Positions 20,567 through 54,867 of a stretch of 64,000 nucleotides of DNA are shown piece after piece. Source of the DNA: a virus; IMG/VR virus record IMGVR_UViG_3300017967_005407, positions 12,598 to 76,597 of that record, one strand, 5' to 3'. Positions within the stretch are counted from its first letter, which is position 1; each line of letters starts with the position of its first letter. Made by a program: the position numbers and the translations under genes. The notes under the pieces are model-generated. The model had not been told where the DNA came from. It did not search any database and worked only from the letters and a program-made list of their open reading frames with translations.

Positions 20567-21469
20567 ATGGTTAACCAAATTATTTCAGCATATAGATATA
20601 ATGTTTTATTTGAAGCAATTGAAAATATATTAGGTATTCCAAGTGGAGAAGGCATTGGCTATAATCAAAATGTTGAAAGTGAACGGCTTCCTAAAACTCG
20701 TATAGTTTATGCAGAAGACATGAATAAACTATATAATGATTATGTAGCTGTGTATGCACATCAAAATGGAACTATACCTGCAACAATTAGCACTGTATCA
20801 GATGAAAATGAGATAACAGAGTCTTTGTATTCTGCTTATGAAACACTTTATCCTCTATTGTTTACAAATAGATTTGATGCAGATGCATCGCAAATGGATT
20901 TAGGTGTTTCTGCAGGTATTGATAGTATTAGAACAAGCACATGGGGCGGCACAGGAACACCACAAAGTATCACACACGAATGGAGTGCTACATTTAGCAG
21001 TGGTAATAACCTAAATGGTTTTTTCAATGCAGGCGGCAGTTTTGAAATGTCTTTTTCAATGGGTTCGACTGGTAGTGATGATAAATCACAAGGCTGGGAA
21101 ACTATGTTAAACAACATAGGAAATGTTACAATTGATTATACAGGCACTACTGTTAGCGGTTCTGGTAGCCCAGCAAGCAACACTGGTATATACGATTTAA
21201 CAACTTCTTACGTAAAAATCTTTGAAAAACTAGGAACAGGAATTTATACTAATAACGATTTAGAAATATATGCCAGAAAAGACGGCAATGTAATTTATTT
21301 CAAAACTGTACTTGCTGACGAAAGCATTGGATCAGATCCAGGCGGAGTAGGGCCTATTGACGAAGTTGTTACTGGTAGAATTACTAGTTTTGTAAGACAA
21401 AACAGACCAGTTGGTAGTTATGTAGAACTGCCTTCTCCATCATATCAAAATATCACTGTTTTCCAATAA
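20567..21469 (+). CDS. Virion structural protein (paralog of 22465..23520)
   Basis: G/S/T-rich; shares 'FFNAGG/FFMTGG', 'WETMLNNIG/WQTMMSNMG', 'IYTNN/IYNDN' and 'PIDEVVTG/PIDEPVTG' with the paralog. Confidence 0.6.
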   Translation: MVNQIISAYRYNVLFEAIENILGIPSGEGIGYNQNVESERLPKTRIVYAEDMNKLYNDYVAVYAHQNGTIPATISTVSDENEITESLYSAYETLYPLLFTNRFDADASQMDLGVSAGIDSIRTSTWGGTGTPQSITHEWSATFSSGNNLNGFFNAGGSFEMSFSMGSTGSDDKSQGWETMLNNIGNVTIDYTGTTVSGSGSPASNTGIYDLTTSYVKIFEKLGTGIYTNNDLEIYARKDGNVIYFKTVLADESIGSDPGGVGPIDEVVTGRITSFVRQNRPVGSYVELPSPSYQNITVFQ

Positions 21470-22399
21470 TTTGCCTTTGTAATCTTTTATCTTTTTAGTT
21501 GTTAAATCTGTTAAACAACTGCAAAATTCATATTGGCATTTAACTGGAACATAAGGTATGTTAAAATTCATGTCGTGTATATTTCCTAAAATAAAATTAG
21601 GAAAACATTGACTACCTATAGTAACATTGCCTTGTCTTGTTATGTTTAATGTGTCTATACCAATCCAACAAGCCCAACCTTTAAATTTATTTTTCTTTTC
21701 CAGTAAAAGTTTTTGTAAGTCTATAATATTATTGTTTTCGTCTACCATTGTAACGCCATAGTTGTCTTTTTTGATACCTGGCAATTTTATTAATGATTGC
21801 ATCTGTTTTATTTGTTTAGATGTATAAGGCATAGATTCTGCTTTGTCTAAACTTACACGTAAAGGTTTGTAATCTAATCTTATGTGTTTGTTCAAGTTTT
21901 TTAAACAGTAATCATATTGTTGTAGTGCTAAATCAAAATTTTCAATATCCATACATATTTGAAAATGTATATCAAAACTTCCAGCACATGCATTAAATTT
22001 GTCTACTAAATCTACAATATTAACCTGAGCAACATGAACACTTACAACTACACTATCTATATTGTTTTGATTTTTTTGCCACCAACGTTTTGTTTTATTA
22101 CCGTTTGTTAGCAACTGTACTTTGTTTTTTGGACTGATGCTTTTTACATAGGAAAAAAACTCAGGAATTTCTCGCCATATAGTTGGCTCACCACCAAATA
22201 AATTATACACAGCAAATTTATCTGTATAAGTTGCTGCTATTTTATCAACTAAAAGTTTTGCATTTTCTAATGTAGGAAAATTGTATTTTCCGTCGTGTGC
22301 TGCTGGTTCACAATAATGGCATGCGTAATTACATCTACTACTCATATCCCAATCAATGTAAACAAAATCTCTAGATTGTGCGTAATCAAATTGATCCAT
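21440..22399 (-). CDS. Radical SAM enzyme with C-terminal Twitch-like Cys domain (paralog of 50600..51733)
   Basis: CNYACHYC, GGEPT and TNG motifs; C-terminal 'FKGWACWIG...C...LGNI...CQYEFCSC'. Start moved to ATG 22399 (MDQFDY), which follows TAAATA by 4 nt. Confidence 0.9.
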   Translation of the reverse strand: MDQFDYAQSRDFVYIDWDMSSRCNYACHYCEPAAHDGKYNFPTLENAKLLVDKIAATYTDKFAVYNLFGGEPTIWREIPEFFSYVKSISPKNKVQLLTNGNKTKRWWQKNQNNIDSVVVSVHVAQVNIVDLVDKFNACAGSFDIHFQICMDIENFDLALQQYDYCLKNLNKHIRLDYKPLRVSLDKAESMPYTSKQIKQMQSLIKLPGIKKDNYGVTMVDENNNIIDLQKLLLEKKNKFKGWACWIGIDTLNITRQGNVTIGSQCFPNFILGNIHDMNFNIPYVPVKCQYEFCSCLTDLTTKKIKDYKGKLLENSDILI

Positions 22400-22403
22400 G
22401 CAG

Positions 22404-22444
22404 TATTTAACCGGTTGACAAAAACTAGGTAAATAAAGTATACT
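22404..22444. promoter_or_regulatory. Divergent promoter region: minus-strand TAAATA (22404-22409); plus-strand TTGACA-N18-TATACT (22415-22444) with internal TAAATA (22430-22435)
   Basis: Motifs read directly in the 65-nt gap between divergent genes. Confidence 0.55.
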
Positions 22445-22464
22445 ATTAAGAAACTGGAGTGTAC

Positions 22465-23520
22465 ATGAGCGGTCAAGGTACAGCAATATTAGCTACTGAC
22501 TTTAACAATATAAAAAGTATTTTAGAAAATAATTTTGGTATAGGTAATTATGGATTTAGCACCGGAACTGGTGCTAATGATATTCCTAATGATGTTGTAG
22601 GCGGTAGTGACCCAGCTACAAGTGATACTGTTTTGTCTGCTGATGTTGAAAGACTGTATAGCGTAGGACAACTAATACACTATCATCAAAATGGTGCAGT
22701 TAAAAGTTTATCAAGTGCCACGGGTTATGCAGATTTGCAAGTTGGAGAATTAATAGAATTTGCAGATTGGGGAGATGCTGCTAGTGTACAAGGGTTATAT
22801 GATCTTGCAAATTCTTGTGCTGCATTTAATAGGTATACTACAGAATTCAGCGGCGACTTTAGTGTTGCAAATAATAGATCGCTTCGTTTTTTGTCTGACT
22901 GGCAATCATTAAACATAATCTACATACATACATGGAACAGTGCAAACGAAATGACACACTTTTTCATGACCGGTGGAGAAGTTCGTATGAGTGTAGATAT
23001 GATTAATATAGGCACAGCGGGCGATGCTAGTTACGATAAAAACCTTAATTGGCAAACTATGATGAGTAATATGGGTACAGTCAGGTTATTCTTGCGTCCT
23101 AATAGTGCCGGAACTGGCTACGAATGGGTTACTGAAAGTTTAAGCGGCGGTGGCACAGGAAGCATAATAGCTGATACTAACAATGCTGGACCTGCTAACA
23201 GTGGCAATGCGTATCTAGCTTATCAAAGAAACGGAGCCGGCTCAATTTATAATGACAATGAAATACGTATTACTGCAACCATATCTGCATCATCAGTGCG
23301 TTTAGAGCTTGATCTAATTGATGGAGATACAGGTACAGGTAATCCAGCAGATGGTCCATCTAGCACACCTATTGATGAACCTGTAACTGGAGATGTAAGA
23401 GCAAATAGTCAAATATCTTATGCAGATAGTACTATTACCTTAAATGATGGTACTGCTGATACAGACTTTACATTACTTGGACCTCAACCTACAACAACTA
23501 CAGGTCTTTGGGCAACCTAA
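22465..23520 (+). CDS. Virion structural protein (paralog of 20567..21469)
   Basis: GGAG RBS before ATG 22465; motifs shared with the paralog; G/S/T/D-rich. Confidence 0.6.
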   Translation: MSGQGTAILATDFNNIKSILENNFGIGNYGFSTGTGANDIPNDVVGGSDPATSDTVLSADVERLYSVGQLIHYHQNGAVKSLSSATGYADLQVGELIEFADWGDAASVQGLYDLANSCAAFNRYTTEFSGDFSVANNRSLRFLSDWQSLNIIYIHTWNSANEMTHFFMTGGEVRMSVDMINIGTAGDASYDKNLNWQTMMSNMGTVRLFLRPNSAGTGYEWVTESLSGGGTGSIIADTNNAGPANSGNAYLAYQRNGAGSIYNDNEIRITATISASSVRLELDLIDGDTGTGNPADGPSSTPIDEPVTGDVRANSQISYADSTITLNDGTADTDFTLLGPQPTTTTGLWAT

Positions 23521-23561: not shown

Positions 23562-23583
23562 GTAACCACAATTGGAGGTTTCT

Positions 23584-23931
23584 ATGGACGAGCGTCTTGA
23601 AAAAGCATTAGACATCAGTAACTACATGGTTACATTAAACAATCAAACACGTATTTTAAAAGAAAAGTATTACGAAAATCTTGTGTATTATTTCAATGGT
23701 GCTACTTTTACTGTTACAAGAGAGTTAATTAACTTTATCAAAGGTTTAATAGATAGTGATCAGCAATCTGTAATTATAAGCGATGATAATGATATTCCTA
23801 TTGAGATTGAAAACTTAGAAGAATTTCATCAAAATATTTTGAATACATATTTTACAGCATCAAATGAATACTTTGTTGAATACAACAAAATGAAAAGTAA
23901 TAGAAACGTTGAAGGTATTTTAGATATATGA
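23584..23931 (+). CDS. Hypothetical protein (possibly tail-fibre assembly chaperone-like)
   Basis: GGAGG RBS; ATGA overlap with the next gene. The function is a weak guess from position and size. Confidence 0.6.
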   Translation: MDERLEKALDISNYMVTLNNQTRILKEKYYENLVYYFNGATFTVTRELINFIKGLIDSDQQSVIISDDNDIPIEIENLEEFHQNILNTYFTASNEYFVEYNKMKSNRNVEGILDI

Positions 23932-24752
23932 GCAAAGGTGTTTTACTGTTTGCCAAAAGAAACAATGCATTAGATTATATTAAACAAGCTATATTTTGTG
24001 CTAAACGTGTAAAAAAATATTTAGACGTTCCAGTATCAATTGCTACTGATATGGTAGATGATGATAGACTTGATTTTTTTGATCATGTAATTAAATTACA
24101 GCCAAGCAATAATGATAACTCTAGAAAATTTAGAGATGGAAATCTTGCAACTAAGTTGGCAAACTTTAATAATGCAGATAGATATTTTGCATACGAATTA
24201 AGTCCTTATGACGAAACTATCGTAATGGATACAGATTACATACTTGCTAATGATAAACTTAAAAATTGTTTTGGTTCTAAACAAGATTTGATGATGTATA
24301 GCAGTGCTGTAGATTTATGTCATTGGCGTAATTTGACTGAATTTGATAGAGTAACTGATACAAGTATAAAGTTTTATTGGGCTACAGTTGTATATTTTAA
24401 AAAAACAGAAAAAACTAAATGCTTTTTTGATCTTGTGCAACACGTAAAAGAAAATTATACTCATTACAAAAGTTTGTATCAAATAATTAATCCGCTGTAT
24501 AGAAATGATTTTGCCTTTAGTATTGCTGCTCATATACTAAATGGATTTACAGAAGATTTAACAATTGCAAGTTTACCAGGTAAAAAATACTTTACTACTG
24601 ATAGAGATATATTGCAGAGTATTGACAATGATAAAATGATAATGTTGTTAGAAAAACAAAATCATGTTGGAGAATATACTGCAATAAAAACCAATAAACA
24701 AAGCATACATGTAATGAATAAAATTAGTTTAGAAAGAGTGATTGATGGATAA
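23928..24752 (+). CDS. GT-A fold glycosyltransferase-like protein
   Basis: 'ELSPYDETIVMDTDY' DxD motif and late 'RNDFAFSIA'; paralog of the next gene. Confidence 0.75.
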   Translation: MSKGVLLFAKRNNALDYIKQAIFCAKRVKKYLDVPVSIATDMVDDDRLDFFDHVIKLQPSNNDNSRKFRDGNLATKLANFNNADRYFAYELSPYDETIVMDTDYILANDKLKNCFGSKQDLMMYSSAVDLCHWRNLTEFDRVTDTSIKFYWATVVYFKKTEKTKCFFDLVQHVKENYTHYKSLYQIINPLYRNDFAFSIAAHILNGFTEDLTIASLPGKKYFTTDRDILQSIDNDKMIMLLEKQNHVGEYTAIKTNKQSIHVMNKISLERVIDG

Positions 24753-25584
24753 AAACTTTACTCTCCTAGCTCAAAATAGTGACCAAGATTACGTTAAGCA
24801 AGCGTGTTTATGTGCAATGAGTATACATGCTACAAATCCTGAAAGCAATGTTTCTTTAATTACTAATGACACTGTGCCTGAGAAGTATAAACAACTTTTT
24901 GATCACATAGTAGAAATACCGTGGGGCGATCACGCAGCAGAAGAAGATTGGAAAATAAGTAATCGTTGGAAAATATATCATGCAACACCGTATGATAATA
25001 CTATGGTGCTTGACACTGATATGTTAATATTACAAAATTTAGATAGATGGTTTACTTATTTAGATAATTATGATCTATATTACACTAGCAATGTGTTAAC
25101 ATATAGAGGAGAAACGGTAACAAGTGATTACTATAGAAAAGCATTTACACAATTTGACTTGCCTAATTTATATAGTGGAGTGCATTGGTTTAAAGAACGT
25201 CCTCTAGCAAAAGAATTTTATGCTTGGTTAGAAATGATTACTAATAATTGGCAATTGTTTTACAAACATCATGCAGGAGGCAAAACGTTTCAAAAAAAAT
25301 GTAGTATGGATTTAAGTGCAGCTATCGCAGCAAAGATAATGAACTGCGAAAATCAAATCACAAGTAATACTAGTTTTCCAACTTTTGTTCATATGAAACC
25401 AAAGTTACAAAAATGGAATGCTTATGATAGTTTATCATGGCAATCACGTATTAGTGTTTACTTGAACGATGATTTAGATTTGTATGTTGGTAATTTTAAA
25501 CAAAGTGGTATATTTCATTATACAGAAAAAGATTTTGCAAAAGACGAAATAATAAACACATACGAAAAGCACTTGGGGATATAA
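24745..25584 (+). CDS. GT-A fold glycosyltransferase-like protein (GT8-like)
   Basis: 'NRWKIYHATPYDNTMVLDTDML' DxD motif, 'YSGVHWF', 'FVHMK', 'IFHY'. Confidence 0.75.
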   Translation: MDKNFTLLAQNSDQDYVKQACLCAMSIHATNPESNVSLITNDTVPEKYKQLFDHIVEIPWGDHAAEEDWKISNRWKIYHATPYDNTMVLDTDMLILQNLDRWFTYLDNYDLYYTSNVLTYRGETVTSDYYRKAFTQFDLPNLYSGVHWFKERPLAKEFYAWLEMITNNWQLFYKHHAGGKTFQKKCSMDLSAAIAAKIMNCENQITSNTSFPTFVHMKPKLQKWNAYDSLSWQSRISVYLNDDLDLYVGNFKQSGIFHYTEKDFAKDEIINTYEKHLGI

Positions 25585-26145
25585 ATGCCAATAGTAGTAA
25601 AAAGTAATACAAAAAAATATATTGAATTTGACGACGAAGGTAATATACAGGCTATAGTGAATACACCAAGCAGTGATCAATACATTCAAGTAGATAGCAA
25701 GGATATAATAGATTTAATTAAAGGTATTGTACCTACACATCAATATCGAGTAGAGTTTGATATTGTAAAAAAAGATTATGTGTTGAATAAAACTGATTAT
25801 TGGGAAGAAGCAAGAAGCTCTGATAGTTTTTTACATAAAATAGAATACAATGAAGATGCTGATGCTACATTAATCCAAAATAACATAAAAAAACAATGGG
25901 AATTAAAATTAGGTAAAAAAGTTTTACAAAATATGGATAAAATAAATGTCAATATGAAAAACTTGATTACCGGATTTAGTATTACTGATAAAAATAATCC
26001 TTATAATTTACATTATATTTTAAACTTTGAAACTGATAAATTTACAATTCCTTTTCCTGATAATTTTCAGTTTGACAAATCTCTAGTAAGTGTTTATACT
26101 GTAAGGAGATTAGAGTCTTATTCTCACGAGGTAATCAATGACTGA
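25585..26145 (+). CDS. Hypothetical protein
   Basis: 186-aa ORF abutting both neighbours; no motif recognised. Confidence 0.7.
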   Translation: MPIVVKSNTKKYIEFDDEGNIQAIVNTPSSDQYIQVDSKDIIDLIKGIVPTHQYRVEFDIVKKDYVLNKTDYWEEARSSDSFLHKIEYNEDADATLIQNNIKKQWELKLGKKVLQNMDKINVNMKNLITGFSITDKNNPYNLHYILNFETDKFTIPFPDNFQFDKSLVSVYTVRRLESYSHEVIND

Positions 26146-27055
26146 TATTTTTAGAGTAGTTGATCATGACATAATTTATCTTAGTTATGATGAGCCCAAT
26201 GCCGAACAAAACTATGCAGATTTGCTTACAAAAGTTCCTTGGGCTAAACGTGTACACGGTGTAAAAGGAAGTGATGCTGCACACAAAGCTGCTGCAAATG
26301 CAAGTGATACAGAAAGATTTATTACTATCGATGGTGATAATCGAATACGTGAAACTTTTTTAAGCCAAGAAGCAGATTTAAGTGAATATGACTTAACTGA
26401 TAAAGTCATAAGTTGGACTGCTTATAATCAAATAAACGGACTTGCATATGGCAACGGCGGTATTAAGTGTTGGCCTAAACATAAAGTTTTAAGTATGAAA
26501 ACGCATGAAAACGCAGATCCAGACAATGCACATGCACAAGTAGATTTTTGTTGGGACTTGCAATATATTCAAATGAATGGAACATTCAGTGACATTTACA
26601 ATAATGCAACACCTCAACAAGCATGGAGAGCAGGATTCCGTGAAGGTGTTAAAATGGCACTAGATCAAGGTATAAAACCAGATATTGAAGATTTTAAACG
26701 CAATCATTGGAAAAATTTGCATAGACTTTGGATATGGTTAATGGTAGGTGCAGATGCTGATAACGGACGTTGGGCAATTTATGGAGCAAGAGAAGGTTTG
26801 TACAAAACTATGTGTACAGATTGGAACTTTATCAACGTGCGTGATTTTGAATGGTTAAACGATTATTGGAATAATATCGAGGTTAATGAAGAAACATTAG
26901 AAGATGAAACTCAAAGACTCGGTGATGAACTTATGAATGAATTACAGGCTCCAATTGCATTACAGCCGTTAGATGCAAATCAAAGTAAGTTTTTTAAAAC
27001 AGTGTATCAAAATCCTGTACGTAATCCTAAGTTTATCGATAAGGAACTTGGATGA
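26138..27055 (+). CDS. Glycosyltransferase-like protein (DGD motif; paralog of 30442..31473)
   Basis: 'IIYLSYDEPNAEQNY...RVHGVKG...FITIDGDN...NGLAYGNGGIK...AWRAGFREGVK'. Confidence 0.65.
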   Translation: MTDIFRVVDHDIIYLSYDEPNAEQNYADLLTKVPWAKRVHGVKGSDAAHKAAANASDTERFITIDGDNRIRETFLSQEADLSEYDLTDKVISWTAYNQINGLAYGNGGIKCWPKHKVLSMKTHENADPDNAHAQVDFCWDLQYIQMNGTFSDIYNNATPQQAWRAGFREGVKMALDQGIKPDIEDFKRNHWKNLHRLWIWLMVGADADNGRWAIYGAREGLYKTMCTDWNFINVRDFEWLNDYWNNIEVNEETLEDETQRLGDELMNELQAPIALQPLDANQSKFFKTVYQNPVRNPKFIDKELG

Positions 27056-28425
27056 GCGAAAGAGACGAAGCAGTTCGTATAACAAAATACACAGACGAAC
27101 AGATTTCTCCTACATTTTGTTTTGCTAAATGGTATCATGCAAACATTTATTTTCAGACAGGTGAAACACACAGTTGTTATCATCCTGCTCCTCATACAAT
27201 TGATACACAAGCTATTTTAAAAAATCCTAGTGCTATTCATAATACAAAACAAAAAATTGAAGAACGTGCTGCAATGTTGCGTGGTGAACAACCTAAAGGC
27301 TGTCAATACTGTTGGAACATTGAGAATATGGGTCCTGATTATATCAGCGATCGTAAAACCCGTAGCAGTAGTATTTACAACGAGGAAAGATTAAATGCTG
27401 TAAAACAAGGTGGCGCAGAATTTAATGTTAATCCGGAATATTTAGAAGTTAGCTTTGGTAATGAATGTAACTTCCGTTGTGGTTATTGTCATCCAAAAGC
27501 CAGCAGCAGATACTATCAAGAAATTAAGCAACACGGTCCATATGATATGGTGCGCAATCACCGATGTGATGTTGATTGGTTTAAAATTTATGAAGAAGAC
27601 AATAATCCGTACCTAGATGCATTTTGGAAATGGTGGCCTGATTTAAGCAACGACTTAACTATTTTACGCATCACAGGTGGAGAACCAACAATACAAAAGA
27701 GCACATATAAACTTTTTGATTTGTTGGAGCAGGATCCAAAGCCTCATTTAGAATTGAATGTTAACAGTAATTTAGGAGGCAAACCAAAGCAATTAGAAAA
27801 ATTTACCGATGCAGTAAATAGTTTGCTTAGTCAAAATAAAATTCGTAGATTCAAACTGTTTACAAGTATTGACACTTGGGGTAAACGTGCTGAGTACATA
27901 CGTAACGGATTAGATATTGATGTATTTGAGCGTAATTTAGATTATTTTATGCGTAATACAAATGCACCTGTAACTATAATGATTACATTTAATATTTTCA
28001 GTGTTACAACTTTTCAAACATTACTTGAAAAAATATTAGAATGGCGCCGAAAGTATAATGATGTTGAAACATTTCGGTGGAATCGTTTAAGTTTTGATAC
28101 ACCTTATCTAAAAGAACCATTACAATACGATATTAATATTTTGCCTCAGGAATATATGAAGTATATGCACAGTCATTTACAGTTTATAAAAGACAACTTA
28201 GATGATGAACGTAAAGATGCATTTACTACAATGGAATATGAACGTTTTAGGCGTGTAGTTGATTACATGGATTCAACACAGTATGATCCTGCAAAAGTTA
28301 TGCAAGGTCGTATTGACTTTTGGCGTTTTTTCAATGAGCAAGATAAAAGAAGAAATACAAATTTTAAAGAAGCATTTCCTGAAATGGCTGACTTTTTTGA
28401 AACTTGTAAAGATACTGCTAGTTAA
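27052..28425 (+). CDS. Radical SAM enzyme with N-terminal Twitch-like domain
   Basis: N-terminal 'FCFAKW...SCYH...CQYCW'; CNFRCGYC; GGEPT; 'SID...AEYIR'. Confidence 0.9.
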   Translation: MSERDEAVRITKYTDEQISPTFCFAKWYHANIYFQTGETHSCYHPAPHTIDTQAILKNPSAIHNTKQKIEERAAMLRGEQPKGCQYCWNIENMGPDYISDRKTRSSSIYNEERLNAVKQGGAEFNVNPEYLEVSFGNECNFRCGYCHPKASSRYYQEIKQHGPYDMVRNHRCDVDWFKIYEEDNNPYLDAFWKWWPDLSNDLTILRITGGEPTIQKSTYKLFDLLEQDPKPHLELNVNSNLGGKPKQLEKFTDAVNSLLSQNKIRRFKLFTSIDTWGKRAEYIRNGLDIDVFERNLDYFMRNTNAPVTIMITFNIFSVTTFQTLLEKILEWRRKYNDVETFRWNRLSFDTPYLKEPLQYDINILPQEYMKYMHSHLQFIKDNLDDERKDAFTTMEYERFRRVVDYMDSTQYDPAKVMQGRIDFWRFFNEQDKRRNTNFKEAFPEMADFFETCKDTAS

Positions 28426-37384: not shown

Positions 37385-37400
37385 GTGCGCAGTTAATGGA

Positions 37401-47162: not shown

Positions 47163-48146
47163 ATGAGCCTTGTTGCATATCATAAATTACACAAAAAAAT
47201 AGATGACTTATCCGAATGGGGAATGTTTTTTAGAAAAGTAAACTTTCCAAAAAGAACAACAGACAATTGTAGATGTAAAAGAGATTTGAAATATATTTTG
47301 TGGGGCATAGCTAGATGTATTTTGCATCAAGATCCAAAATTAATTAACGAGATTTCTCATAAATTTGTAAAAAATAAAAAACTTGTCCTAACTGATCATA
47401 GAGTAGAATTAGCTGTTTATGCTTATATAGAAGGTGAGTTATACAAACTACTTAAACACCATAGAGATGATGTTGAAATTATGATAGAAGCAATGCAGTT
47501 GCTAAAAGATAATTTTAAAAAACTAGAAGAAGCAAACTACACTAGAGAATTTAGTGATTTGATTAAAGAAAGAAAAACTACATTTACATGGTTAGATAAA
47601 AAAGTTACGCAAGAAACAGTTGAAGATATATTGTTAGACTTACACATGTACGCACCTAGTAAACAAAATAGAATGCCTTACTATCTTGATGTTTTAGATT
47701 GGAAGGACCCTGAGTTGAGACATAATATTTTTGAATGGTGCTGGAGAGACCTTAAACATGATGCACAAACAGATAAAGGAAATCCTCAAACATTAGCACC
47801 TTATCTATTTTGTTTTACTCCACGGATATCTAATAATCCTGACGATAATGCTTTGGAAGAAGCAATGATTGAAATAGGTATAGCCAGTAGCTTTATTATT
47901 TGGAATGCACAAAGTAGAGGATTAAGTACAGGTTATTGTGCATGTATTCAAGATCCTACAATGATAAGTAATGCATTAGGACGTCCGAATAATCAGGTTA
48001 AATTGTTATTAGGTATGGGCTACAAAGATGAGAACGCTAACAGTTATTTTGATCCAAGAATACAGGCCGATAAATTGCTACCAAGTGATAATTCATTCCA
48101 TAAATCTAATCAGGAAAATATAGGATCTTATATCGTATGGCATTAA
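47163..48146 (+). CDS. Nitroreductase-fold protein with an unknown N-terminal domain
   Basis: 'LIKERKT...APSKQN...IEIGIASSFIIWNAQSRGLSTGYCAC...LLLGMGY' begins at about residue 145. Confidence 0.75.
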   Translation: MSLVAYHKLHKKIDDLSEWGMFFRKVNFPKRTTDNCRCKRDLKYILWGIARCILHQDPKLINEISHKFVKNKKLVLTDHRVELAVYAYIEGELYKLLKHHRDDVEIMIEAMQLLKDNFKKLEEANYTREFSDLIKERKTTFTWLDKKVTQETVEDILLDLHMYAPSKQNRMPYYLDVLDWKDPELRHNIFEWCWRDLKHDAQTDKGNPQTLAPYLFCFTPRISNNPDDNALEEAMIEIGIASSFIIWNAQSRGLSTGYCACIQDPTMISNALGRPNNQVKLLLGMGYKDENANSYFDPRIQADKLLPSDNSFHKSNQENIGSYIVWH

Positions 48147-49303
48147 CAAAAACATTGTGCAGTGCAGCATGGTATGATATAAATGTTGACTTTGGAGCAA
48201 AAACATTAAGCCATTGTTGTAAAAGTCAACGTGAATCTTTTCCTGAGGTTGTTACAGAAGACTTTTTTAACAATAGTTTACACATACAAAAATTACGTGA
48301 TGATTTAGTAAATGGTATAGAAAATCCTGCATGTAATTTTTGTTGGAATAGTTATAAAGAAACTGGAACTGCATACAGAGATTTTAAAAACAAATGGATA
48401 GATAATTCTAGTGTTAACTACAATGTAAATAATATAGAAATTACACTTGATAATATTTGTGATATGGCATGTATATATTGTGATGCTACTAGTAGCAGTA
48501 GGATTGCACAAGAATTAGGACATGAGCATGTTATGAATATTCCTAATGATGCTCATATGCAAACTTTCATAAATTGGTTTGAGCATGTAGCATTAAAACA
48601 AAAGTTTATACCTTTGAGTTTTTTAGGTGGCGAAATTAGTTACAGTAAAAACTTTTATAAATTTATGAATATGATTTTGCAAAAAAAGTCTATTTACAAT
48701 AGCAGAATAAATTTTAGTGTATTAACCAATGGCAATGCAACTGAAAAAAATCAAAAAAAACTTTTAGCATTATTTGATAGTTTGCCTGAAAAATGGGGAA
48801 TTAGTTTAGGCATCAGTAACGAATCTACTGGAGTTGTTGCTGAGTCAGTAAGATATGGACTGAATTGGAATCGTTTTCAAAACAACTTCATTGATTATAT
48901 TAATCATCCTAGATTGGTAAATGTAACACTTGCTCCTACTCCTAATATTTTTACTGTAAAGCATATGTATGAGTATTTTGATTGGGTCATAAACGAATTG
49001 CGGAAAACAGATACCAAACTTGCAATTTTTGGAAATTGGGTAAACTGGCCAAACGAACTAGATCCAAGTAAATTAGATGATGCATATAAGATACATGTGG
49101 ATAAATGCTTGCAATTAATCAAAACAAATAAAGATTTATTTTTAGATGCGGGACAATATAATCATACGTACAAATGGTTAGAACAATTAAAAGCACGTAT
49201 AGGTACACAACAGCAAAATGATGTTGAATTAGATAATTGGATACGTAAAACTGCAATACAAAAGAAAGATAACAGTCTTTTGAATTTAAGAGAGTATATA
49301 TGA
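48137..49303 (+). CDS. Radical SAM enzyme with N-terminal Twitch-like domain (close paralog of 52504..53637)
   Basis: 'LCSAAW...HCCK...CNFCW'; CDMACIYC; 'LGGE'. Confidence 0.88.
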   Translation: MALTKTLCSAAWYDINVDFGAKTLSHCCKSQRESFPEVVTEDFFNNSLHIQKLRDDLVNGIENPACNFCWNSYKETGTAYRDFKNKWIDNSSVNYNVNNIEITLDNICDMACIYCDATSSSRIAQELGHEHVMNIPNDAHMQTFINWFEHVALKQKFIPLSFLGGEISYSKNFYKFMNMILQKKSIYNSRINFSVLTNGNATEKNQKKLLALFDSLPEKWGISLGISNESTGVVAESVRYGLNWNRFQNNFIDYINHPRLVNVTLAPTPNIFTVKHMYEYFDWVINELRKTDTKLAIFGNWVNWPNELDPSKLDDAYKIHVDKCLQLIKTNKDLFLDAGQYNHTYKWLEQLKARIGTQQQNDVELDNWIRKTAIQKKDNSLLNLREYI

Positions 49304-50565
49304 CAAAGGAATGGAAAAACCCAGATTGGTTCCCTGCAAAAGGCAATAGAGCGTGTTTGCTTAAATGGAGTCAAGTTACATTAAGTTTATGGGATAACAC
49401 TAGTAGTAGTTGTCACAGAAATGGAATGCATCAAATAGGTGAGGATTTTGATTTTCATAATGAACCAAAATGGGTAGAACATAGAGAAAAAATGTTAAAT
49501 GGCGATTGGCCTAGTGATGGATGGGGTTGCGAACATTGTCGAGATCAAGAAGCTATAGGCGGAACTAGCGATAGGATGCAATGGCTTAGTAATAACAATA
49601 ACAAAAGATATGTTCCAAAAGAACTTTTTAATAATCCAACTGCCACTCGTATAAAACCTACACAAGTAAGTATGCATTTTAATAATAAATGTAATTTAAA
49701 GTGTGTTTATTGTGGGCCTCAGTATAGCAGTGCTTGGGTGAAAGAAATGCAAAAATATGAACCTAAACATAGTTTTATACAAGATGTAGATATAAAAGAA
49801 AAAACGTACGAACAAAGACTGGAAAAATTCTACAAATGGATGGAAAACAATTATAGCAGTCTTAAAGCGTTTGATTTATTAGGCGGTGAACCTTTTATAC
49901 AACAAGAAACATGGGACTGTGTTGATTGGATGATAAAGCATCCTAATCCGGAATGTGATATAGAAATATACAGCAATATGGAAGTAAAACCTAAACTTTT
50001 TAAAAGAGGATGCGAAAAATTAAAAGAACTTAGCAAAACAGTCAAAGAAGTTGTATTTGTAATTAGTGTAGATACTTTTGGACCAGAAAGTGAGTATATA
50101 AGATTTCCACATAATTGGGAAGTTATGGAAGATAATATAAATTATTTAATTTATGAATGCCCAGAAATTATTCCAACTATGAATTGGACTGTTACTAATC
50201 TTAGTCTAAAAACTACTCCGGCATTAGTCCGTAAAGTTATTGAATGGAATAAACATCGGTATGTAAGTGTAAATTATAATAGATGTCACGATCCACATTT
50301 TTTTGATCCAAAAATTATGCCAGAAGGGTTTTACGATGATGTAATTGATGAACTAAAAGAATTAAATCAAATAATGTATCAAGGAAACAACAGTCCATAT
50401 ATGGATTATGTAAACACTATTTTCAAAGAAATAAACGAAACACCTGCAGATTACGAAGCTATAAAAATGCTTAAATGGCGCCTAACAGAACTTGATAAAC
50501 GTAGAGGCACAAATTGGCAAGAAACATTTCCTTGGTTAACAACTGTTGGACATAATAGAATTTGA
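49300..50565 (+). CDS. Radical SAM enzyme with N-terminal Twitch-like domain (same subfamily as 27052..28425)
   Basis: 'ACLLKW...SCHR...CEHC'; CNLKCVYC; 'LGGEP'. Confidence 0.88.
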   Translation: MTKEWKNPDWFPAKGNRACLLKWSQVTLSLWDNTSSSCHRNGMHQIGEDFDFHNEPKWVEHREKMLNGDWPSDGWGCEHCRDQEAIGGTSDRMQWLSNNNNKRYVPKELFNNPTATRIKPTQVSMHFNNKCNLKCVYCGPQYSSAWVKEMQKYEPKHSFIQDVDIKEKTYEQRLEKFYKWMENNYSSLKAFDLLGGEPFIQQETWDCVDWMIKHPNPECDIEIYSNMEVKPKLFKRGCEKLKELSKTVKEVVFVISVDTFGPESEYIRFPHNWEVMEDNINYLIYECPEIIPTMNWTVTNLSLKTTPALVRKVIEWNKHRYVSVNYNRCHDPHFFDPKIMPEGFYDDVIDELKELNQIMYQGNNSPYMDYVNTIFKEINETPADYEAIKMLKWRLTELDKRRGTNWQETFPWLTTVGHNRI

Positions 50566-50599: not shown

Positions 50600-51733
50600 A
50601 TGACTGAAGATTTAAAATGGTCTAATTATGACTTTACTAAAATACCTTTTAATGACATTATCCAAGTGGGACAACGAACGCTCCTCTACCGAGATATCTT
50701 TACGGTATCTTGGTTACTAGGAAGATTTTGTAACTATAGGTGTAGTTACTGTTGGCCTTATGCAAGAAGTGACAGAAAAGATCATAGACCAACTGAGTTG
50801 TGTCTAGCAACTATAGATGAGATAAAGAAGCAAGCACGTGATAACGGTTTTAACAGTTTCCATTTTAGTCTGTCTGGCGGCGAGCCTACCTTTCATCCAG
50901 GGTACTTGGACATACTTGGTCACTTGGCTAATGATGTGCCTAATACTAATTATACTTCCATACATATGACATCAAACTGCTCACGCCCAATGAAGTGGTT
51001 TGAAGATTATGTAGAAAAAGCAAAACCTTTCCATAGAGCAAGTATAACGGCTAGTTTGCACACAGAACACTTAAATACAAAGGAGAAGATGCAGGACTTT
51101 GCAGATAAATTAATCCTGTGTCAAGAACACGATGTACAAGTTACAATTAATATGGTCATGGTTCCGGAATGGTTTGAAAGAGATTGGGAAAACGCCCTCT
51201 TCTTCCACGAGCAAGGAATCAACGTTACACTTAAACCCCAATCGGATCCGACTGCGTCAAAAGTGGTTGATGGATACACTGGGGATATGCTTAAAAGACT
51301 CTGGAACGGAATGCCACAAAGAGCCTACACAGAAACAAAACGCAAGTGGGAAGGTAGACCCAAACCAAACTTCAAAATTCCTGTAGGTATTATGGGCAAA
51401 CCTGATGCAAGTGTACCTTGGCATTTTCAAGTAGAGTTTACTGATAAAGATGGTAATAAGTGGTACATGGATCAAGCAGAAAGATTTAATGCTTTTGAAT
51501 TTAATAAATTCGAAGGTTGGAGTTGTAATGCTGGATATCAAGGTATTATTATTCGTGAGCCCGATGGCAGTATTAAACGTAGTTACAGTTGTCATGATGT
51601 GCCTCTTGGCAATATAGAAACTGGTTTTAAATTATTTGATAAACCTATGCCATGTATGACTAAGTCTTGTGTTAGTAGTGCTGATAGTAAAATACCTAAA
51701 AGGAGAATTGATGAACATACCAATGAGTCATGA
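50600..51733 (+). CDS. Radical SAM enzyme with C-terminal Twitch-like domain (paralog of 21440..22399)
   Basis: CNYRCSYC; 'SGGEPT'; 'FEGWSCNAG...SC...LGNI...CMTKSC'. Confidence 0.9.
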   Translation: MTEDLKWSNYDFTKIPFNDIIQVGQRTLLYRDIFTVSWLLGRFCNYRCSYCWPYARSDRKDHRPTELCLATIDEIKKQARDNGFNSFHFSLSGGEPTFHPGYLDILGHLANDVPNTNYTSIHMTSNCSRPMKWFEDYVEKAKPFHRASITASLHTEHLNTKEKMQDFADKLILCQEHDVQVTINMVMVPEWFERDWENALFFHEQGINVTLKPQSDPTASKVVDGYTGDMLKRLWNGMPQRAYTETKRKWEGRPKPNFKIPVGIMGKPDASVPWHFQVEFTDKDGNKWYMDQAERFNAFEFNKFEGWSCNAGYQGIIIREPDGSIKRSYSCHDVPLGNIETGFKLFDKPMPCMTKSCVSSADSKIPKRRIDEHTNES

Positions 51734-52532
51734 AGATGCATGGGCATTAAATGACAAAGTTGAAAAGGCAATTGGTAGTGAAAATCCAAGTGTAAGTTTG
51801 GAAAATGTTATTCCGAGTGACGTACTACTAGAGTGTAAAGATTTTGTCAAAAACTTTCTTGATTTACCTGATGAATTACCTAAAGATAGAATTTTTTGGT
51901 ACCGAGATGGAATGGTTCACAGACAAAAATTTGTTCAAGACTTTAGTAAAAAATATATTGAGCCCTACTTAAATGAAAATGAAATTTTAATCGGTGATAC
52001 TGCATTCTGTATTAATCATCCTCCACACGATGTTCATGTTGACAACAGAGACTTTAGAGCCGACGAAGAAAAAGCAGGAGTAATTGGCACTAGAAGTGTT
52101 GTTGTACCTATTGAAATAGATACGGACAACTTTCCTAAGTTATACACTGCAAATCAATATTTCTACGGTCCTAGCACTCGTATGCGTAATGGTTGTAACA
52201 GTATAGATACATTAGATAGAGAAGTAGCAAGACAGAAAAGTTGTGGTGTTTACTTTCTTTACGATTATGAAAAATATGGTGTAAAGTATTTAGAAAAAGA
52301 AAATGTTATAACCGAAAAATGGTGGAACGAACACATAAGCGAACCATATTTTGTTCCTTATAGCACATTTGACAGGCTTTCAATTGAAGCTGAGCACGAC
52401 TGGAAACCAGGAAATATTATTGTATTTGATAGTTGTAGAATACATTGGGCTGAAAATCTTCTTAAAAAAGAAGCATCTTTTAAAATAGGATTGAGTTTGA
52501 ATTATGGCATTGTGTTCGAAAAGCTGGACTGA
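51711..52532 (+). CDS. Fe(II)/2-oxoglutarate oxygenase-like protein (paralog of 40669..41493)
   Basis: AGGAG RBS before ATG 51711; 'DVHVDNR', 'GNIIVFDSCRIH', 'KIGL'. Confidence 0.65.
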   Translation: MNIPMSHEDAWALNDKVEKAIGSENPSVSLENVIPSDVLLECKDFVKNFLDLPDELPKDRIFWYRDGMVHRQKFVQDFSKKYIEPYLNENEILIGDTAFCINHPPHDVHVDNRDFRADEEKAGVIGTRSVVVPIEIDTDNFPKLYTANQYFYGPSTRMRNGCNSIDTLDREVARQKSCGVYFLYDYEKYGVKYLEKENVITEKWWNEHISEPYFVPYSTFDRLSIEAEHDWKPGNIIVFDSCRIHWAENLLKKEASFKIGLSLNYGIVFEKLD

Positions 52533-53637
52533 CATTAACATTGATTTTGGCGAGAAAATTATAAAACACTGTTGTAAATCAATTGGTGAAAAATATCATA
52601 TTTTAGATGAAAATTTTATAAATCATAGTGAAGGAATAGTTACTCGCAGACTTGAATCTTTAAACAACATAAAAAATGCTCAGTGTAATTATTGTTGGAA
52701 TCATGATAACAAATCAAATGCTTCATATAGAGATTTGTATAACAAACCAATCGATGTAAATAAAGATGTAGATAGTTTAGTAGAATTTATTGAGTTGAAA
52801 TTTGATAATGTTTGTAATTTAGGATGTGTGTATTGTAGTGAAATAGACAGCAGTACAATTGCAAAAGAAAAAAATTTAGTAAACAGTATTACTAAACACG
52901 ACGAAAAAGATGTTGAAGTTGTTACAAATTACATACAAAAACTACTCAATAAAAATAAAGAAGTGCGTATTAATATGTTAGGCGGCGAGCCAACATTAAG
53001 TAAAGGCTATCACCAATTTATTAAAAATTTGATTAAAACAAATGCAAATGATACAAATATAATTATGGTTACCACTAGCAATGGCAATATGCACAGTAAT
53101 ATTTTAGATACATTAATTTCATATATGGAACAAACTAAATGGAATTGGGTATGGGGATTCAGCGGTGAGTCAACTGGAAAAATATTTGAAAATGTAAGAC
53201 ATGGCTCGGATTGGGATCAATGGAATAATAATTTAGACATTTTATCATCTCATAAAAAAACTTTGTGTATCAGTTTCAATCCTACTGTGAATTTGCTTAC
53301 AGTTAAAGATTTCCCCAATTACATAAATCATGTAACAAATTGTAACAAAATGTATCTAATTAATCCAAATTTTGTATTATTACCATTTGAACTTAGTTTA
53401 GCCAAAGTGCCAAAACATTTTATAAAATACATAGAAGATGCAAAAAATATATTTGAAAAGAAAAATATAAAATGTATCAATAAATCAGATGTAATGAAAT
53501 GGTTTGATGTATGTATAAATACCATTGGAACTGAAAAACTTGATAATGATGTTTTGAAGAATTATTTACAAATTCAAAACAAAAATAAAAATAACACTTT
53601 GGATTTAAGTCTGTTAATGGAACAAGTAAATGAATAA
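52504..53637 (+). CDS. Radical SAM enzyme with N-terminal Twitch-like domain
   Basis: 'LCSKSW...HCCK...CNYCW'; CNLGCVYC; 'LGGEPT'. Confidence 0.88.
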   Translation: MALCSKSWTDINIDFGEKIIKHCCKSIGEKYHILDENFINHSEGIVTRRLESLNNIKNAQCNYCWNHDNKSNASYRDLYNKPIDVNKDVDSLVEFIELKFDNVCNLGCVYCSEIDSSTIAKEKNLVNSITKHDEKDVEVVTNYIQKLLNKNKEVRINMLGGEPTLSKGYHQFIKNLIKTNANDTNIIMVTTSNGNMHSNILDTLISYMEQTKWNWVWGFSGESTGKIFENVRHGSDWDQWNNNLDILSSHKKTLCISFNPTVNLLTVKDFPNYINHVTNCNKMYLINPNFVLLPFELSLAKVPKHFIKYIEDAKNIFEKKNIKCINKSDVMKWFDVCINTIGTEKLDNDVLKNYLQIQNKNKNNTLDLSLLMEQVNE

Positions 53638-54199
53638 ATTTGAAGAATTAGATTTACCTACATATGATTTGTATAAAGAATTACAAAAGTTAATAGAACT
53701 AGGAAAAATAGTATATAAAGACGATACTGATCAAATATGTTTAAATTCTATCGTAGGCAAAGAAGAAAATTATAATTTTGGAAGAGGAAGTCTTCATTTT
53801 GATTGGGACAATAGTTACTACGATCATAAACAAGAAAAAATGGTTGTGCCTTTGAGAAAAGACAAAGTAGAAGAAAAAGATTTTACAGTTCTTTGCACAC
53901 AATTTAAAGATACACCTTTTGAAATCGTATATAATGCATTAAAAGAAAAATTTACTGTAGGTAGGGTACGACTAATACGAAGTAGGCCAAAAACTTGTAT
54001 GAGCTGGCACAAAGATGATCATCCTAGAGTACATTTTCCCTTAAAAACACAAGAAGGTTGCATAATGATTATACAAGATGAAATGATGCATTTAGAACAA
54101 AATAAATGGTATATCACTGACACAACAGTACATCATACTGCTATAAATTCTAGTAGAGAAGATCGCATACATTTAGTAGCAACAATTATAGATAAATAA
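53630..54199 (+). CDS. Aspartyl/asparaginyl beta-hydroxylase-family dioxygenase
   Basis: 'GRVRLI...MSWHKD...RVHFPL...DTTVHHTAINSSREDRIHLV'. Confidence 0.8.
   Translation: MNKFEELDLPTYDLYKELQKLIELGKIVYKDDTDQICLNSIVGKEENYNFGRGSLHFDWDNSYYDHKQEKMVVPLRKDKVEEKDFTVLCTQFKDTPFEIVYNALKEKFTVGRVRLIRSRPKTCMSWHKDDHPRVHFPLKTQEGCIMIIQDEMMHLEQNKWYITDTTVHHTAINSSREDRIHLVATIIDK
54192..54198 (+). promoter_or_regulatory. Late-promoter-like ATAAATA
   Basis: Precedes an AGGAG RBS and ATG 54217. Confidence 0.5.
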
Positions 54200-54216
54200 T
54201 TGCATAGGAGAGTACT

Positions 54217-54867
54217 ATGCAAACCACATACAACGATGTTAAAAAGGCAGTTATACGTAGTCAACACTGCCAAAGAAACTGGGATTTAAATAAACAGATT
54301 CCAGAGGATGATTTAGAGCTGTTAAAACATTCAGTAGCAAATTGTCCTAGCAAACAAAACATGGCTTTTTATAAAGTACATTTTATTCAAGATAGAAATA
54401 TTATAGAATCTATTCACGAAAATACTGACGGATTTACATATAATTTTGAAACTGGAGCGAGTACAACAAATAGTCAAATTTTAGCTAATTTAGTACTAGC
54501 TTTTGAAGCAAGTAATCCTTTTGATGTAAATGATGACGAAGTAAGAAACGACGAGTGGTACGAGAAAAAAGTTAAAGGATCTTTAACAAGTAAATCTGTA
54601 GAAAATTTAATTAGAGACACTCATGTTGCAGTTGGTATTGCAGCTGGGTATGCAAATTTGACTGCTAGTATGCTCGGACTTAATACAGGTTGTTGTAGTT
54701 GTTATGATGCAGAAGAAATTAAAAACATCCTAAATGCAGAAAATAATATTATGCTATTAATGGGTATCGGCTTTAAAAATGAAGAAAGAAACCGTAGAGA
54801 ACATCATAACAATAATTTTGTTTTTCCAACTAAACCGAAGCAAAAAATAGAAATTTTTGATAGATAA
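54217..54867 (+). CDS. Nitroreductase-fold flavoprotein
   Basis: 'RSQHCQRNW...CPSKQN...GIAAGYANLTASMLGLNTGCCSC...LLMGIGF'. Confidence 0.8.
   Translation: MQTTYNDVKKAVIRSQHCQRNWDLNKQIPEDDLELLKHSVANCPSKQNMAFYKVHFIQDRNIIESIHENTDGFTYNFETGASTTNSQILANLVLAFEASNPFDVNDDEVRNDEWYEKKVKGSLTSKSVENLIRDTHVAVGIAAGYANLTASMLGLNTGCCSCYDAEEIKNILNAENNIMLLMGIGFKNEERNRREHHNNNFVFPTKPKQKIEIFDR

Follow-up and report, generated by a model that had tools for sequence, protein, structure and literature searches.

The virus contig IMGVR_UViG_3300017967_005407 of the IMG/VR collection carries an enzyme-rich island of about 33 kb (positions 21440-54867), in which 14 genes for radical S-adenosylmethionine (SAM) enzymes stand among glycosyltransferase-like, hydroxylase-like, nitroreductase-fold and fibre genes (Table 1). 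Positions refer to the window, that is, the whole stretch of 64,000 nucleotides that was analysed, equivalent to bases 12598-76597 of one linear 76.6-kb contig without terminal repeats, and genes are named by their lower coordinate, followed by (-) when they lie on the reverse strand. The completeness of the contig is about 15% (CheckV), and the G+C content of the window is 29-38%. The island is wholly coding, and its only gap is filled by an open reading frame (ORF) of 74 amino acids (aa) at 32344-32568, missing from the initial ORF list, whose start and stop codons overlap the neighbouring genes.

The motif CxxxCxxC occurs once in each of the 14 ORFs named as radical SAM enzymes in the first-pass annotation and in no other ORF of the window, and the radical SAM model PF04055 likewise matches all 14, 12 of them above the Pfam gathering threshold of 29.5 bits. 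The two lower scores belong to 27052, with 28.6 bits yet 318 bits against the model NF033640 (N_Twi_rSAM; 398 positions, cut-off 170 bits), and to 34000 (19.8 bits), the N-terminal piece of a split gene. Two starts differ from those listed earlier (32906 instead of 32918, and 41406 instead of 41493). Three groups can be distinguished among the 14, namely eight N-terminal-twitch (N-twitch) enzymes, four members of a second family and two of other types. In the first group, a four-cysteine SPASM/twitch-like domain stands ahead of the radical SAM core: NF033640 matches over its full length in eight ORFs, six of them above the cut-off (27052, 37412, 38805, 42514, 43872 and 49300, with 248-427 bits) and two under it (48137 and 52504), while PF13186 (SPASM) matches residues 6-94 of 37412, 42514 and 43872. 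The NF033640 match is confined to the core in the other six radical SAM ORFs. Residues C9, C90 and C93 are invariant in 69 N-twitch sequences from related loci, as are the catalytic and putative cluster-binding residues as a whole, and C27 is present in all eight window paralogues; the N-terminal cysteine domain thus appears to be twitch-like and is a putative cluster-binding domain.

In the second family (32906, 34000, 35008 and 41406), a G-x-x-G/D-D-P motif replaces GGEP and the C-terminal domain has a PCC...C pattern. One of its members is split into a 241-aa core ORF (34000-34725) and a 96-aa Cys-rich ORF (34718-35008) that overlap by 8 nt; when joined, they align end to end with 32906, 35008 and 41406, including the PCC and the last Cys, which marks them as one gene in two ORFs. 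The 96-aa piece also forms an ORF of its own in the relative L001 (69% identity), so the split could be genuine and no error of sequencing. Identity between the radical SAM paralogues is only 18-35%, which points to old, maintained diversity and not to recent amplification, and the relatives of 21440(-) found elsewhere are only 22-36% identical to it.

The AlphaFold2 (AF2) model of 37412 (predicted local distance difference test, pLDDT, 88) has the standard partial TIM-barrel radical SAM core and reaches a VIA Z score of 12.0 to anSMEcpe and BlsE, with about 220 residues aligned at 4 Å. At Z 11-12, peptide and protein modifiers (anSME, CteB, SkfB, SuiB) match as closely as sugar and nucleoside modifiers (BlsE, DesII, viperins), so that the fold leaves the substrate class of the N-twitch enzymes undecided; phmmer searches of PDB sequences with 37412 and 41406 returned nothing useful. 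The enzymes share the partial TIM-barrel core, the CxxxCxxC motif and an auxiliary Fe-S domain with known twitch and SPASM enzymes (anSME, CteB, SkfB, SuiB; BtrN, BlsE, DesII), but their auxiliary domain is N-terminal instead of C-terminal, identity is 11-17%, and the recognition element (RRE) of pathways for ribosomally synthesized and post-translationally modified peptides (RiPPs) is missing. With the rest of the NF033640 family they have in common the four-Cys domain before the core, the difference being that eight such divergent paralogues stand in one phage locus. This family is catalogued, but no characterised member, solved structure or paper was found in literature and PDB searches, and the literature on N-terminal twitch or jumbo phage radical SAM enzymes yielded no description of such arrays.

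Given the presence of BlsE and DesII among the tied matches, one could imagine that the island makes a soluble small molecule, such as an aminoglycoside-like, aminocyclitol-like or other sugar-derived metabolite, directed against competitors or used for host reprogramming. Known twitch radical SAM enzymes include tailoring enzymes of aminoglycosides and nucleoside antibiotics. A cyanophage radical SAM gene is reported to lie beside a sugar aminotransferase and an inosamine amidinotransferase (PMC12801897). This explanation is nevertheless considered very unlikely: the island encodes no scaffold-forming enzyme, resistance gene or exporter, and both its place in the structural module and its extreme variability between strains would be hard to explain.

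Four glycosyltransferase-like genes, the number given in the first-pass annotation, are supported, even though no Pfam or PHROG model matches any of them. A profile of 27 homologues of the paralogues 23928 and 24742 matches 19 glycogenin sequences (glycogenin-1 and -2) at E values of 9e-6 to 2e-4, a similarity to these GT8 enzymes that lies in the N-terminal half of the profile and is limited to positions 9-106; D101-x-D103 and a distal H261 are invariant in the family, and PF01501 has no match on the contig even at E 10. For the family of 26138 and 30442, an AF2 model based on a 32-sequence alignment (pLDDT 89.6) gives, as top PDB matches in Foldseek, the peptide S-glycosyltransferases SunS and ThuS, WrtF, TarP and the chlorovirus PBCV-1 protein A64R (E 7e-5 to 1e-3), and nearly all of the top 30 or so matches are GT-A enzymes (E 7e-5 to 2e-3, probability 0.97-1.0). 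Like SunS and ThuS, 26138 combines an N-terminal GT-A domain containing a DxD motif (D65-x-D67, invariant in the family) with a helical C-terminal domain, but the TM-scores of these top matches are only 0.3-0.36, identity is 10-13%, and the window contains no glycocin precursor. ESM Atlas clusters of the family are automatically named GT2-like. Because PF00535 has no match over the whole contig at E <= 10 and hhalign of 26138 against one GT2 domain covers only the DxD region (probability 0.4, not significant), both proteins are termed GT-A-like and not GT2 members. The nearest solved relatives of both glycosyltransferase types are enzymes that glycosylate proteins or peptides (glycogenin, SunS/ThuS, PBCV-1 A64R, ppGalNAc-T).

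Glycosyltransferases of T-even phages glycosylate DNA, and radical SAM enzymes take part in thymidine and deazaguanine hypermodification pathways; the island could therefore be imagined to decorate modified bases of the phage and to serve restriction evasion, for which the cytoplasmic location of all its enzymes would be suitable. Such a role is extremely improbable. The folds found are GT-A folds of the protein or glycan type and not of the T4 alpha/beta-glucosyltransferase type, the island lacks a dNMP hydroxymethylase, a kinase, DpdA/TGT, QueC/D and any DNA-binding module, it lies in the structural and not in the nucleotide-metabolism module, and its 14 radical SAM enzymes far exceed those of any known DNA pathway.

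Two further enzyme types are identified by family models. PF05118 (Asp/Asn beta-hydroxylase-like cupin, threshold 22.6 bits) matches 46365(-) with 35.3 bits and 53630 with 45.7 bits, and PF00881 (nitroreductase fold, threshold 23.5 bits) matches 47163 with 31.7 bits and 54217 with 37.7 bits. Both nitroreductase-fold genes proposed earlier are thereby recovered, together with two of the four candidate iron(II)/2-oxoglutarate (Fe/2OG) oxygenases. The other two, 40657 and 51669, retain the status of possible oxygenases by their invariant H115-x-D117 ... H254 (HxD...H) motif: their profile matches nothing in the PDB, PF13640 and PF05721 have no match on the contig even at E 10, and hhalign against bacterial PhyH paralogues covers only the distal His motif (probability 0.7%). 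Invariant G5, S88, Y101 and K105 suggest that 40115 may be related to short-chain dehydrogenases/reductases (SDRs), with marginal matches to adh_short (PF00106; 9.9 bits, E 0.02) and to SDRs in the PDB (E 0.004). Similarly, 31460 may be methyltransferase-like, given Rossmann-type motifs in a 34-sequence consensus and an ESM Atlas lead at 0.95 to a viral cluster with PF13847 on 21% of its members; its profile matches nothing in the PDB, and hhalign against one methyltransferase is not significant. A possible acyltransferase, also listed at first, was not confirmed.

Between 20567 and 56366, the 19-residue Kyte-Doolittle mean never rises above 1.6 in any ORF, and with no segment resembling a transmembrane helix the island contains no flippase, polymerase, lipid-carrier glycosyltransferase or exporter, which places its chemistry in the cytoplasm. 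PqqD/RRE (PF05402) has no match at E <= 10, where a distant or novel recognition domain is possible; no protease and no precursor-like small ORF rich in Cys, Ser or Thr was found in the island, its only small ORFs being devoid of Cys, and nearby structural proteins contain hardly any Cys. This makes a classical RiPP or thioether pathway unlikely.

These observations bear on the possibility that the enzymes modify protein or peptide directly, with the radical SAM enzymes acting on amino acids in a fibre or baseplate protein or in a small peptide, by thioether or C-C cross-linking, epimerisation or oxidation, with the hydroxylases acting on Asp and Asn, and with glycosylation as one of several steps. 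The top Foldseek matches of the N-twitch model are CteB, SkfB and anSME, the secondary NCBIfam matches are mostly peptide maturases, PF05118 is a family of protein Asp/Asn hydroxylases, and nitroreductase-fold dehydrogenases occur in RiPP pathways; moreover, the G-[DN]-[VIL]-x repeats of fibre 29046(-) offer many Asp and Asn residues, and a bacterial N-twitch cluster adjoins a fibre-like secreted protein. Nevertheless, the island shows no RRE/PqqD domain, precursor-like ORF, protease or exporter, the near absence of Cys excludes thioether chemistry on the structural proteins, the sugar modifiers BlsE and DesII are tied in Z score with the peptide enzymes, and the accessory genes of related loci are of sugar type. 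Taken together, direct protein or peptide modification is regarded as unlikely.

The genomic position of the island can be defined by comparison with cultured jumbo phages. Within its first 3000 aa, of which 60-67% are aligned, the 4528-aa protein 946-14532 shares 27-30% identity with giant structural proteins from the virions of Phosso, Atu_ph07, PA5oct and SCTP-2, and the PA5oct homologue is recorded as detected in virions by mass spectrometry (MS). Colinearity with the PA5oct baseplate module extends over the 13 kb before the window, the giant protein, the 201-aa protein at 14562 and the N-terminal parts of 15167, 17164 and 19032; the order in PA5oct is hub, baseplate protein, wedge, giant protein and gp10-like tail pin, most of them likewise recorded as MS-detected in virions; 15167 has a Collar domain and 17164 matches a PHROG virion structural protein. 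Nothing comparable to the island was found at the corresponding place in PA5oct. This colinearity indicates that the contig is a fragment of an uncultured jumbo myovirus, related to PA5oct and Atu_ph07, and that the island starts where the PA5oct baseplate module stops, in agreement with the earlier placement directly after the baseplate and fibre genes. The AAA ATPase 59311-60393(-) is 50% identical to its PA5oct counterpart and 36-44% to those of Phosso, Atu_ph07 and SCTP-2. Among cultured phages, a megablast search with 20 kb of the island found no match, and tblastn with 37412 found only three weak ones at 21-25% identity (RsoM2USA and two Vibrio phages).

The interleaving with structural genes that had been described also holds, with one fibre gene, 29046(-), inside the island and another, 54885(-), at its end. 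The two share a common 37-aa C-terminus, and the first, which is not found in the relatives G001-G003, has three stretches built strictly of G-[DN]-[VIL]-x tetrapeptides. It has 14 N-x-S/T sequons where 6.8 are expected (z 3.1), an excess that is partly a by-product of the repeats; the excess in 54885(-) is marginal (z 1.95), and the other structural proteins show none. The position of 28422(-) suggests a possible fibre accessory protein or chaperone.

Table 1. Genes and predicted promoter sites in the island and its surroundings.
Feature	Position	Strand	Evidence or remark
Giant 4528-aa virion (baseplate-associated) protein	946..14532	+	Upstream boundary; homology to jumbo-phage giant virion proteins
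Small 201-aa structural protein	14562 (block 14562..20546)	+	38% identity to PA5oct EST35_0126
Three paralogous tail-pin/fibre genes, 15167, 17164 and 19032	within 14562..20546	+	N-termini resemble the gp10-like baseplate wedge/tail pin of PA5oct
Putative structural protein, paralogue of 22459	20567..21469	+	27% identity to 22459 over 313 aa (blastp); synteny kept in G001 and G003; no family match
Radical SAM, other type	21440..22486	-	PF04055 4e-10; CNYACHYC at residue 52; antisense, flanked by the structural paralogues 20567 and 22459
Putative structural protein, paralogue of 20567	22459..23520	+	Paralogy; relatives
Conserved 119-aa protein	23572..23931	+	42-56% identical orthologues in G001-G003; no family match
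Two paralogous GT8-like (glycogenin-like) genes, 23928-24752 and 24742-25584	23928..25584	+	Profile match
186-aa protein	25585..26145	+	No family match; weakly conserved in relatives
GT-A fold glycosyltransferase-like, helical C-terminal domain	26138..27055	+	AF2 and Foldseek
N-twitch radical SAM	27052..28425	+	NF033640 318 bits
200-aa protein downstream of fibre 29046	28422..29024	-	Present in 19 loci (37-84% identical); nothing in Pfam, PHROG or PDB
Fibre gene inside island, G-[DN]-[VIL]-x repeats	29046..30371	-	PHROG tail fibre C-terminus 2.6e-5
GT-A fold glycosyltransferase-like, paralogue of 26138	30442..31473	+	31% identity over 239 aa to 26138
Methyltransferase-like protein (weak)	31460..32347	+	Motifs and ESM Atlas lead
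Two coupled small ORFs, 74 aa (32344-32568) and 117 aa (32565-32918)	32344..32918	+	No Cys; no family match
Radical SAM, second family, core gene	32906..34003	+	PF04055 4.4e-10
Radical SAM, second family, split into 34000-34725 and 34718-35008	34000..35008	+	Joined product aligns with family
Radical SAM, second family	35008..36030	+	PF04055 2.1e-11
466-aa accessory protein	35984..37384	+	No family match; found in 8 loci
Two N-twitch radical SAM genes, 37412 (core) and 38805	37412..40118	+	NF033640 427 and 372 bits
Short SDR-like protein, 185 aa (weak)	40115..40672	+	Invariant residues, weak profile match
Possible Fe/2OG oxygenase, paralogue of 51669	40657..41493	+	Motif only
Radical SAM, second family	41406..42533	+	PF04055 1e-11; 33% identity to 32906
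Two N-twitch radical SAM genes, 42514 and 43872	42514..45119	+	NF033640 296 and 294 bits; N-terminal PF13186 SPASM in both
Antisense pair, 447-aa protein (45083) and Asp/Asn beta-hydroxylase-like (46365)	45083..47099	-	PF05118 1.3e-8 for 46365; 45083 without family match in Pfam/PHROG scans
Nitroreductase-fold protein, 130-aa N-terminal extension	47163..48146	+	PF00881 2.1e-7
Two N-twitch radical SAM genes, 48137 (under cut-off) and 49300 (above)	48137..50565	+	NF033640 159.5 and 248 bits, full length
Radical SAM, other type, strongly conserved core gene	50600..51733	+	PF04055 2.7e-15; 84-86% identity in G001-G003
Possible Fe/2OG oxygenase, paralogue of 40657	51669..52532	+	Motif only
N-twitch-type radical SAM, under cut-off	52504..53637	+	NF033640 145.6 bits; 30% identity to 48137
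Asp/Asn beta-hydroxylase-like (53630) and nitroreductase-fold (54217)	53630..54867	+	PF05118 8e-12; PF00881 3e-9
Fibre gene with Mtd_N domain, downstream boundary	54885..56366	-	PF18454 3.8e-9
Sigma-70-like sites	22415-22444, 23533-23561, 26072-26100, 50566-50593	+	TTGACA-N16-18-TATACT
Sigma-70-like sites	29059-29031, 59268-59241	-	TTGACT-N17-TATAAT and TTGACA-N16-TATATT, respectively

Beyond the island, a DUF2201 metallopeptidase/VWA protein adjoins the MoxR/CobS-like AAA ATPase (57906-60393(-)), and next, at 62084-63064(-), comes an RNase H-like 5'-3' exonuclease; the block is kept in the relative G002, and the AAA/VWA/RNase H block comes after the island in one of G001-G003. The sole strongly hydrophobic protein of the window, 63623-63985(-), also lies outside the island and is predicted from its hydropathy (19-residue mean of 2.8 near residue 10) to be a small membrane or secreted protein.

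Hundreds of related phage contigs from aquatic environments carry such an island. The 37412 protein has more than 2000 metagenomic homologues, many of them 80-92% identical and derived from marine or other aquatic samples, on contigs of up to 353 kb, and IMG/VR contains 382 loci with a protein of this type. On each of five long related contigs, 7-15 NF033640-type matches lie clustered, and in three of them, G001-G003, the gene order is as here, with the giant protein followed by the fibre paralogues, the 23572-27052 block, 30442, 31460, 32906, 37412, 38805, 50600 and 53630. Orthologues at least 60% identical are present in 80 of 80 fetched loci for 37412 and in 76 of 80 for 32906, while most other radical SAM genes are swapped from genome to genome; the 38 complete 21-kb neighbourhoods have between 5 and 12 radical SAM ORFs each (median 9), and the fetched loci together contain at least 62 N-twitch clusters below 70% identity. 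Conserved core genes and a hypervariable complement of intact enzymes thus make up the island, a combination that fits diversifying pressure on a recognition-related surface.

When one representative for each of 104 non-radical-SAM gene clusters from 89 related loci was scanned against Pfam, this accessory pool was found to include hydroxylases, nitroreductases, UDP-glucose/GDP-mannose dehydrogenase, NTP transferase and a NodU/CmcH-type carbamoyltransferase, as well as FkbM methyltransferases, GDSL/SGNH proteins, an Asn-synthase-type amidotransferase and a GNAT protein. By its family composition, the pool resembles a sugar-tailoring toolkit. The same loci (L001-L089) contain a 277-aa family, absent from the window, with 68 members in 44 loci, whose representative (L023:13568-14401) has no Pfam match.

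The N-twitch family is rare in Bacteroidota chromosomes (3 of 300 sampled genomes), where it also occurs in tandem and adjoins arrays of PhyH-type oxygenases, a WelO5-like oxygenase, methyltransferases and a methyltransferase-GT2 fusion. At one such locus (L106, G088:C2:1207001-1227000), four or five PhyH-type dioxygenase paralogues, a WelO5-like oxygenase and a methyltransferase surround two divergent N-twitch genes, and alongside lies an 842-aa protein with a Peptidase_S74 domain (endosialidase chaperone, fibre-type) and a T9SS sorting domain. Judging from its gene content, this locus may be a bacterial counterpart of the phage toolkit; hidden Markov models of the non-radical-SAM families of the island found no homologues beside the bacterial N-twitch genes. 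A search of genome contigs with 37412 returned only contigs of metagenome-assembled genomes (MAGs; L090-L095), labelled Crocinitomicaceae, Neisseriaceae, Acidimicrobiaceae, Bdellovibrionales and Flavobacteriales. These are most likely phage DNA mis-binned into bacterial genomes, and because the MAG taxonomy is mutually inconsistent and mis-binning probable, no host is deduced from them.

The exact sequence of 30442-40118 is present (0.68-0.96 of sampled words) in 19 salt-marsh metagenome runs of 2018, probably from one campaign, so that the phage strain is estuarine, its relatives being marine. Four salt-marsh metatranscriptome runs contain scattered contigs of 150-980 nt with at least 99% identity over enzyme and fibre genes, but as these are contigs only and DNA carry-over is possible, they show neither transcription nor timing. 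At the sequence level, two kinds of sites are seen before genes. TAAATA lies 5-38 nt before 11 gene starts, structural as well as enzymatic, where about one is expected from its overall density, and the first-pass annotation was right in regarding this motif as common to both kinds of genes. TTGACA-N16-18-TATACT lies directly before 22459 (N18), 23572, 26138 and 50600 (N16), and TTGACT-N17-TATAAT before 28422(-); these near-perfect predicted sigma-70-like sites may represent a phage promoter class distinct from TAAATA, although sigma-70-type promoter counts overall do not exceed the shuffled expectation. A seventh sigma-70-like site, at 43469-43497, lies inside a gene. With the two types of site mixed, expression timing is not readable from sequence and a late expression of the island is not secure.

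Islands of this kind are already known. In pelagimyophages and cyanomyophages, the 'host recognition cluster' is a hypervariable island after the giant VrlC baseplate protein, which contains fibres, many glycosyltransferases (GT8 being the most frequent), radical SAM cassettes that differ between close relatives and, commonly, an Asp/Asn hydroxylase; it was read as modifying the host O-chain, and the radical SAM cassettes were mentioned and not analysed (Zaragoza-Solas et al. 2020, PMC7029224). The present island is likewise large, hypervariable and located in the structural region after a giant baseplate protein, with fibres, glycosyltransferases and radical SAM genes, and by analogy it may be regarded as a hypervariable accessory island that ends the baseplate and tail-pin module. 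The difference is that those phages are T4-like SAR11 phages of 132-164 kb, whereas here the lineage is a jumbo one nearest PA5oct, Atu_ph07 and Phosso and the radical SAM complement is much larger, with 14 in 33 kb. It is therefore the same kind of island in a different lineage, and the earlier remark that no characterised phage pathway reaches this size is only partly upheld: no counter-example was found in the literature, but the island type has been in print since 2020.

The pelagimyophage precedent also bears on host envelope remodelling, in which nucleotide sugars would be made or edited and added to lipopolysaccharide (LPS) or capsule intermediates at the cytoplasmic face, leading to serotype conversion or superinfection exclusion; O-chain modification was proposed for the pelagimyophage cassettes of fibre, GT8 and radical SAM genes (PMC7029224). 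In addition, GT8 and GT2 families are common in LPS synthesis, the UDP-sugar dehydrogenase, carbamoyltransferase and amidotransferase of the accessory pool are typical of O-antigen loci, and the sigma-70-like sites before several operons would suit early expression. Against this, the island has no membrane protein, flippase, polymerase, ligase, lipid-carrier transferase or exporter, although host components could substitute for them, while known phage serotype converters use membrane proteins of the Gtr, Oac or Wzy type; furthermore, the nearest solved relatives of both glycosyltransferase types act on proteins or peptides, and the constant place inside the structural module is left unexplained. 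Envelope remodelling is thus rated as fairly unlikely.

In the favoured interpretation, the four soluble GT-A enzymes, two glycogenin-like (putative GT8) and two SunS/GT2-like, would use nucleotide sugars of the host to build up a short glycan on an acceptor in the cytoplasm. The radical SAM enzymes, that is, the eight N-twitch enzymes, the four with a C-terminal cluster domain and the two others, would then edit its sugars through hydrogen-atom abstraction, with epimerisation, oxidation, deoxygenation or decarboxylation as possible reactions, and the Fe/2OG hydroxylases, the flavin nitroreductase-fold enzymes and the SDR-like and methyltransferase-like proteins could contribute further tailoring. 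The conserved core (glycosyltransferases, 31460, 32906, 37412 and 50600) would make the basic structure, which the variable radical SAM set would diversify between phage strains. Such glycan building followed by radical and oxidative sugar editing is considered moderately probable. The acceptor would most likely be the phage's own fibre or tail-pin proteins, modified before or during assembly, because of the constant position and the nature of the glycosyltransferase relatives; with this acceptor included, the interpretation as a whole is possible, at somewhat less than an even chance. In its favour, the island directly follows the baseplate module, occupies the same position in G001-G003 and has fibre genes inside and at its end.

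Virion glycosylation by virus-encoded enzymes is known from chlorovirus PBCV-1 (A64R and its partners), mycobacteriophage operons and the fibril glycans of mimivirus. Soluble GT-A enzymes encoded by the virus, beside structural proteins or acting on them, are the common feature, and A64R is among the matches of 26138. None of the chlorovirus, mimivirus or mycobacteriophage systems is known to use radical SAM enzymes, and for the present phage virion glycosylation is a prediction from the genes.

Several points weigh against the glycan interpretation. The acceptor and the glycosylated virion proteins are inferred, and sequon enrichment is confined to one fibre, 29046(-). The modelled N-twitch fold matches peptide or protein modifiers as well as it matches sugar modifiers, and the nitroreductase-fold and Asp/Asn-hydroxylase genes are equally at home in peptide or protein pathways. 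The window encodes no nucleotide-sugar pathway gene. Five island operons appear to carry sigma-70-like sites and not TAAATA, so that co-expression with the late structural genes is not established, and in print, similar islands have been interpreted in one way only, as modifying the host O-chain (PMC7029224). The virion-decoration pathway proposed in the first-pass annotation is therefore retained in part: a tightly packed, phage-encoded enzyme island with real glycosyltransferase folds and a sugar-tailoring accessory pool is likely to be a glycan-tailoring island, while a fibre or baseplate target is regarded as no more than plausible.

As a wider conjecture, a widespread clade of aquatic giant phages might diversify its host-recognition apparatus post-translationally, with core glycosyltransferases priming a fibre or tail-pin protein and strain-specific N-twitch enzymes, of which the clade has dozens of subfamilies, rewriting the sugars or the protein itself. 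This conjecture is tentative and rather doubtful. If true, NF033640 would gain its first function and radical SAM chemistry its first virion-modification pathway, and, if the target is the virion, tailed giant phages would join chloroviruses, mimiviruses and some mycobacteriophages in encoding their own glycosylation, here with tailoring of a new type. The value of the locus lies in testable enzymology and not in a first sighting: radical SAM enzymes carry out reactions that are very hard to achieve in other ways, and 14 intact, anciently diverged radical SAM copies in one locus may represent a large untapped set of reactions. Because the island stands at the site of host-recognition genes and differs from one close relative to the next, its product could influence the host range, superinfection or stability of virions in marine and estuarine phages that are abundant.

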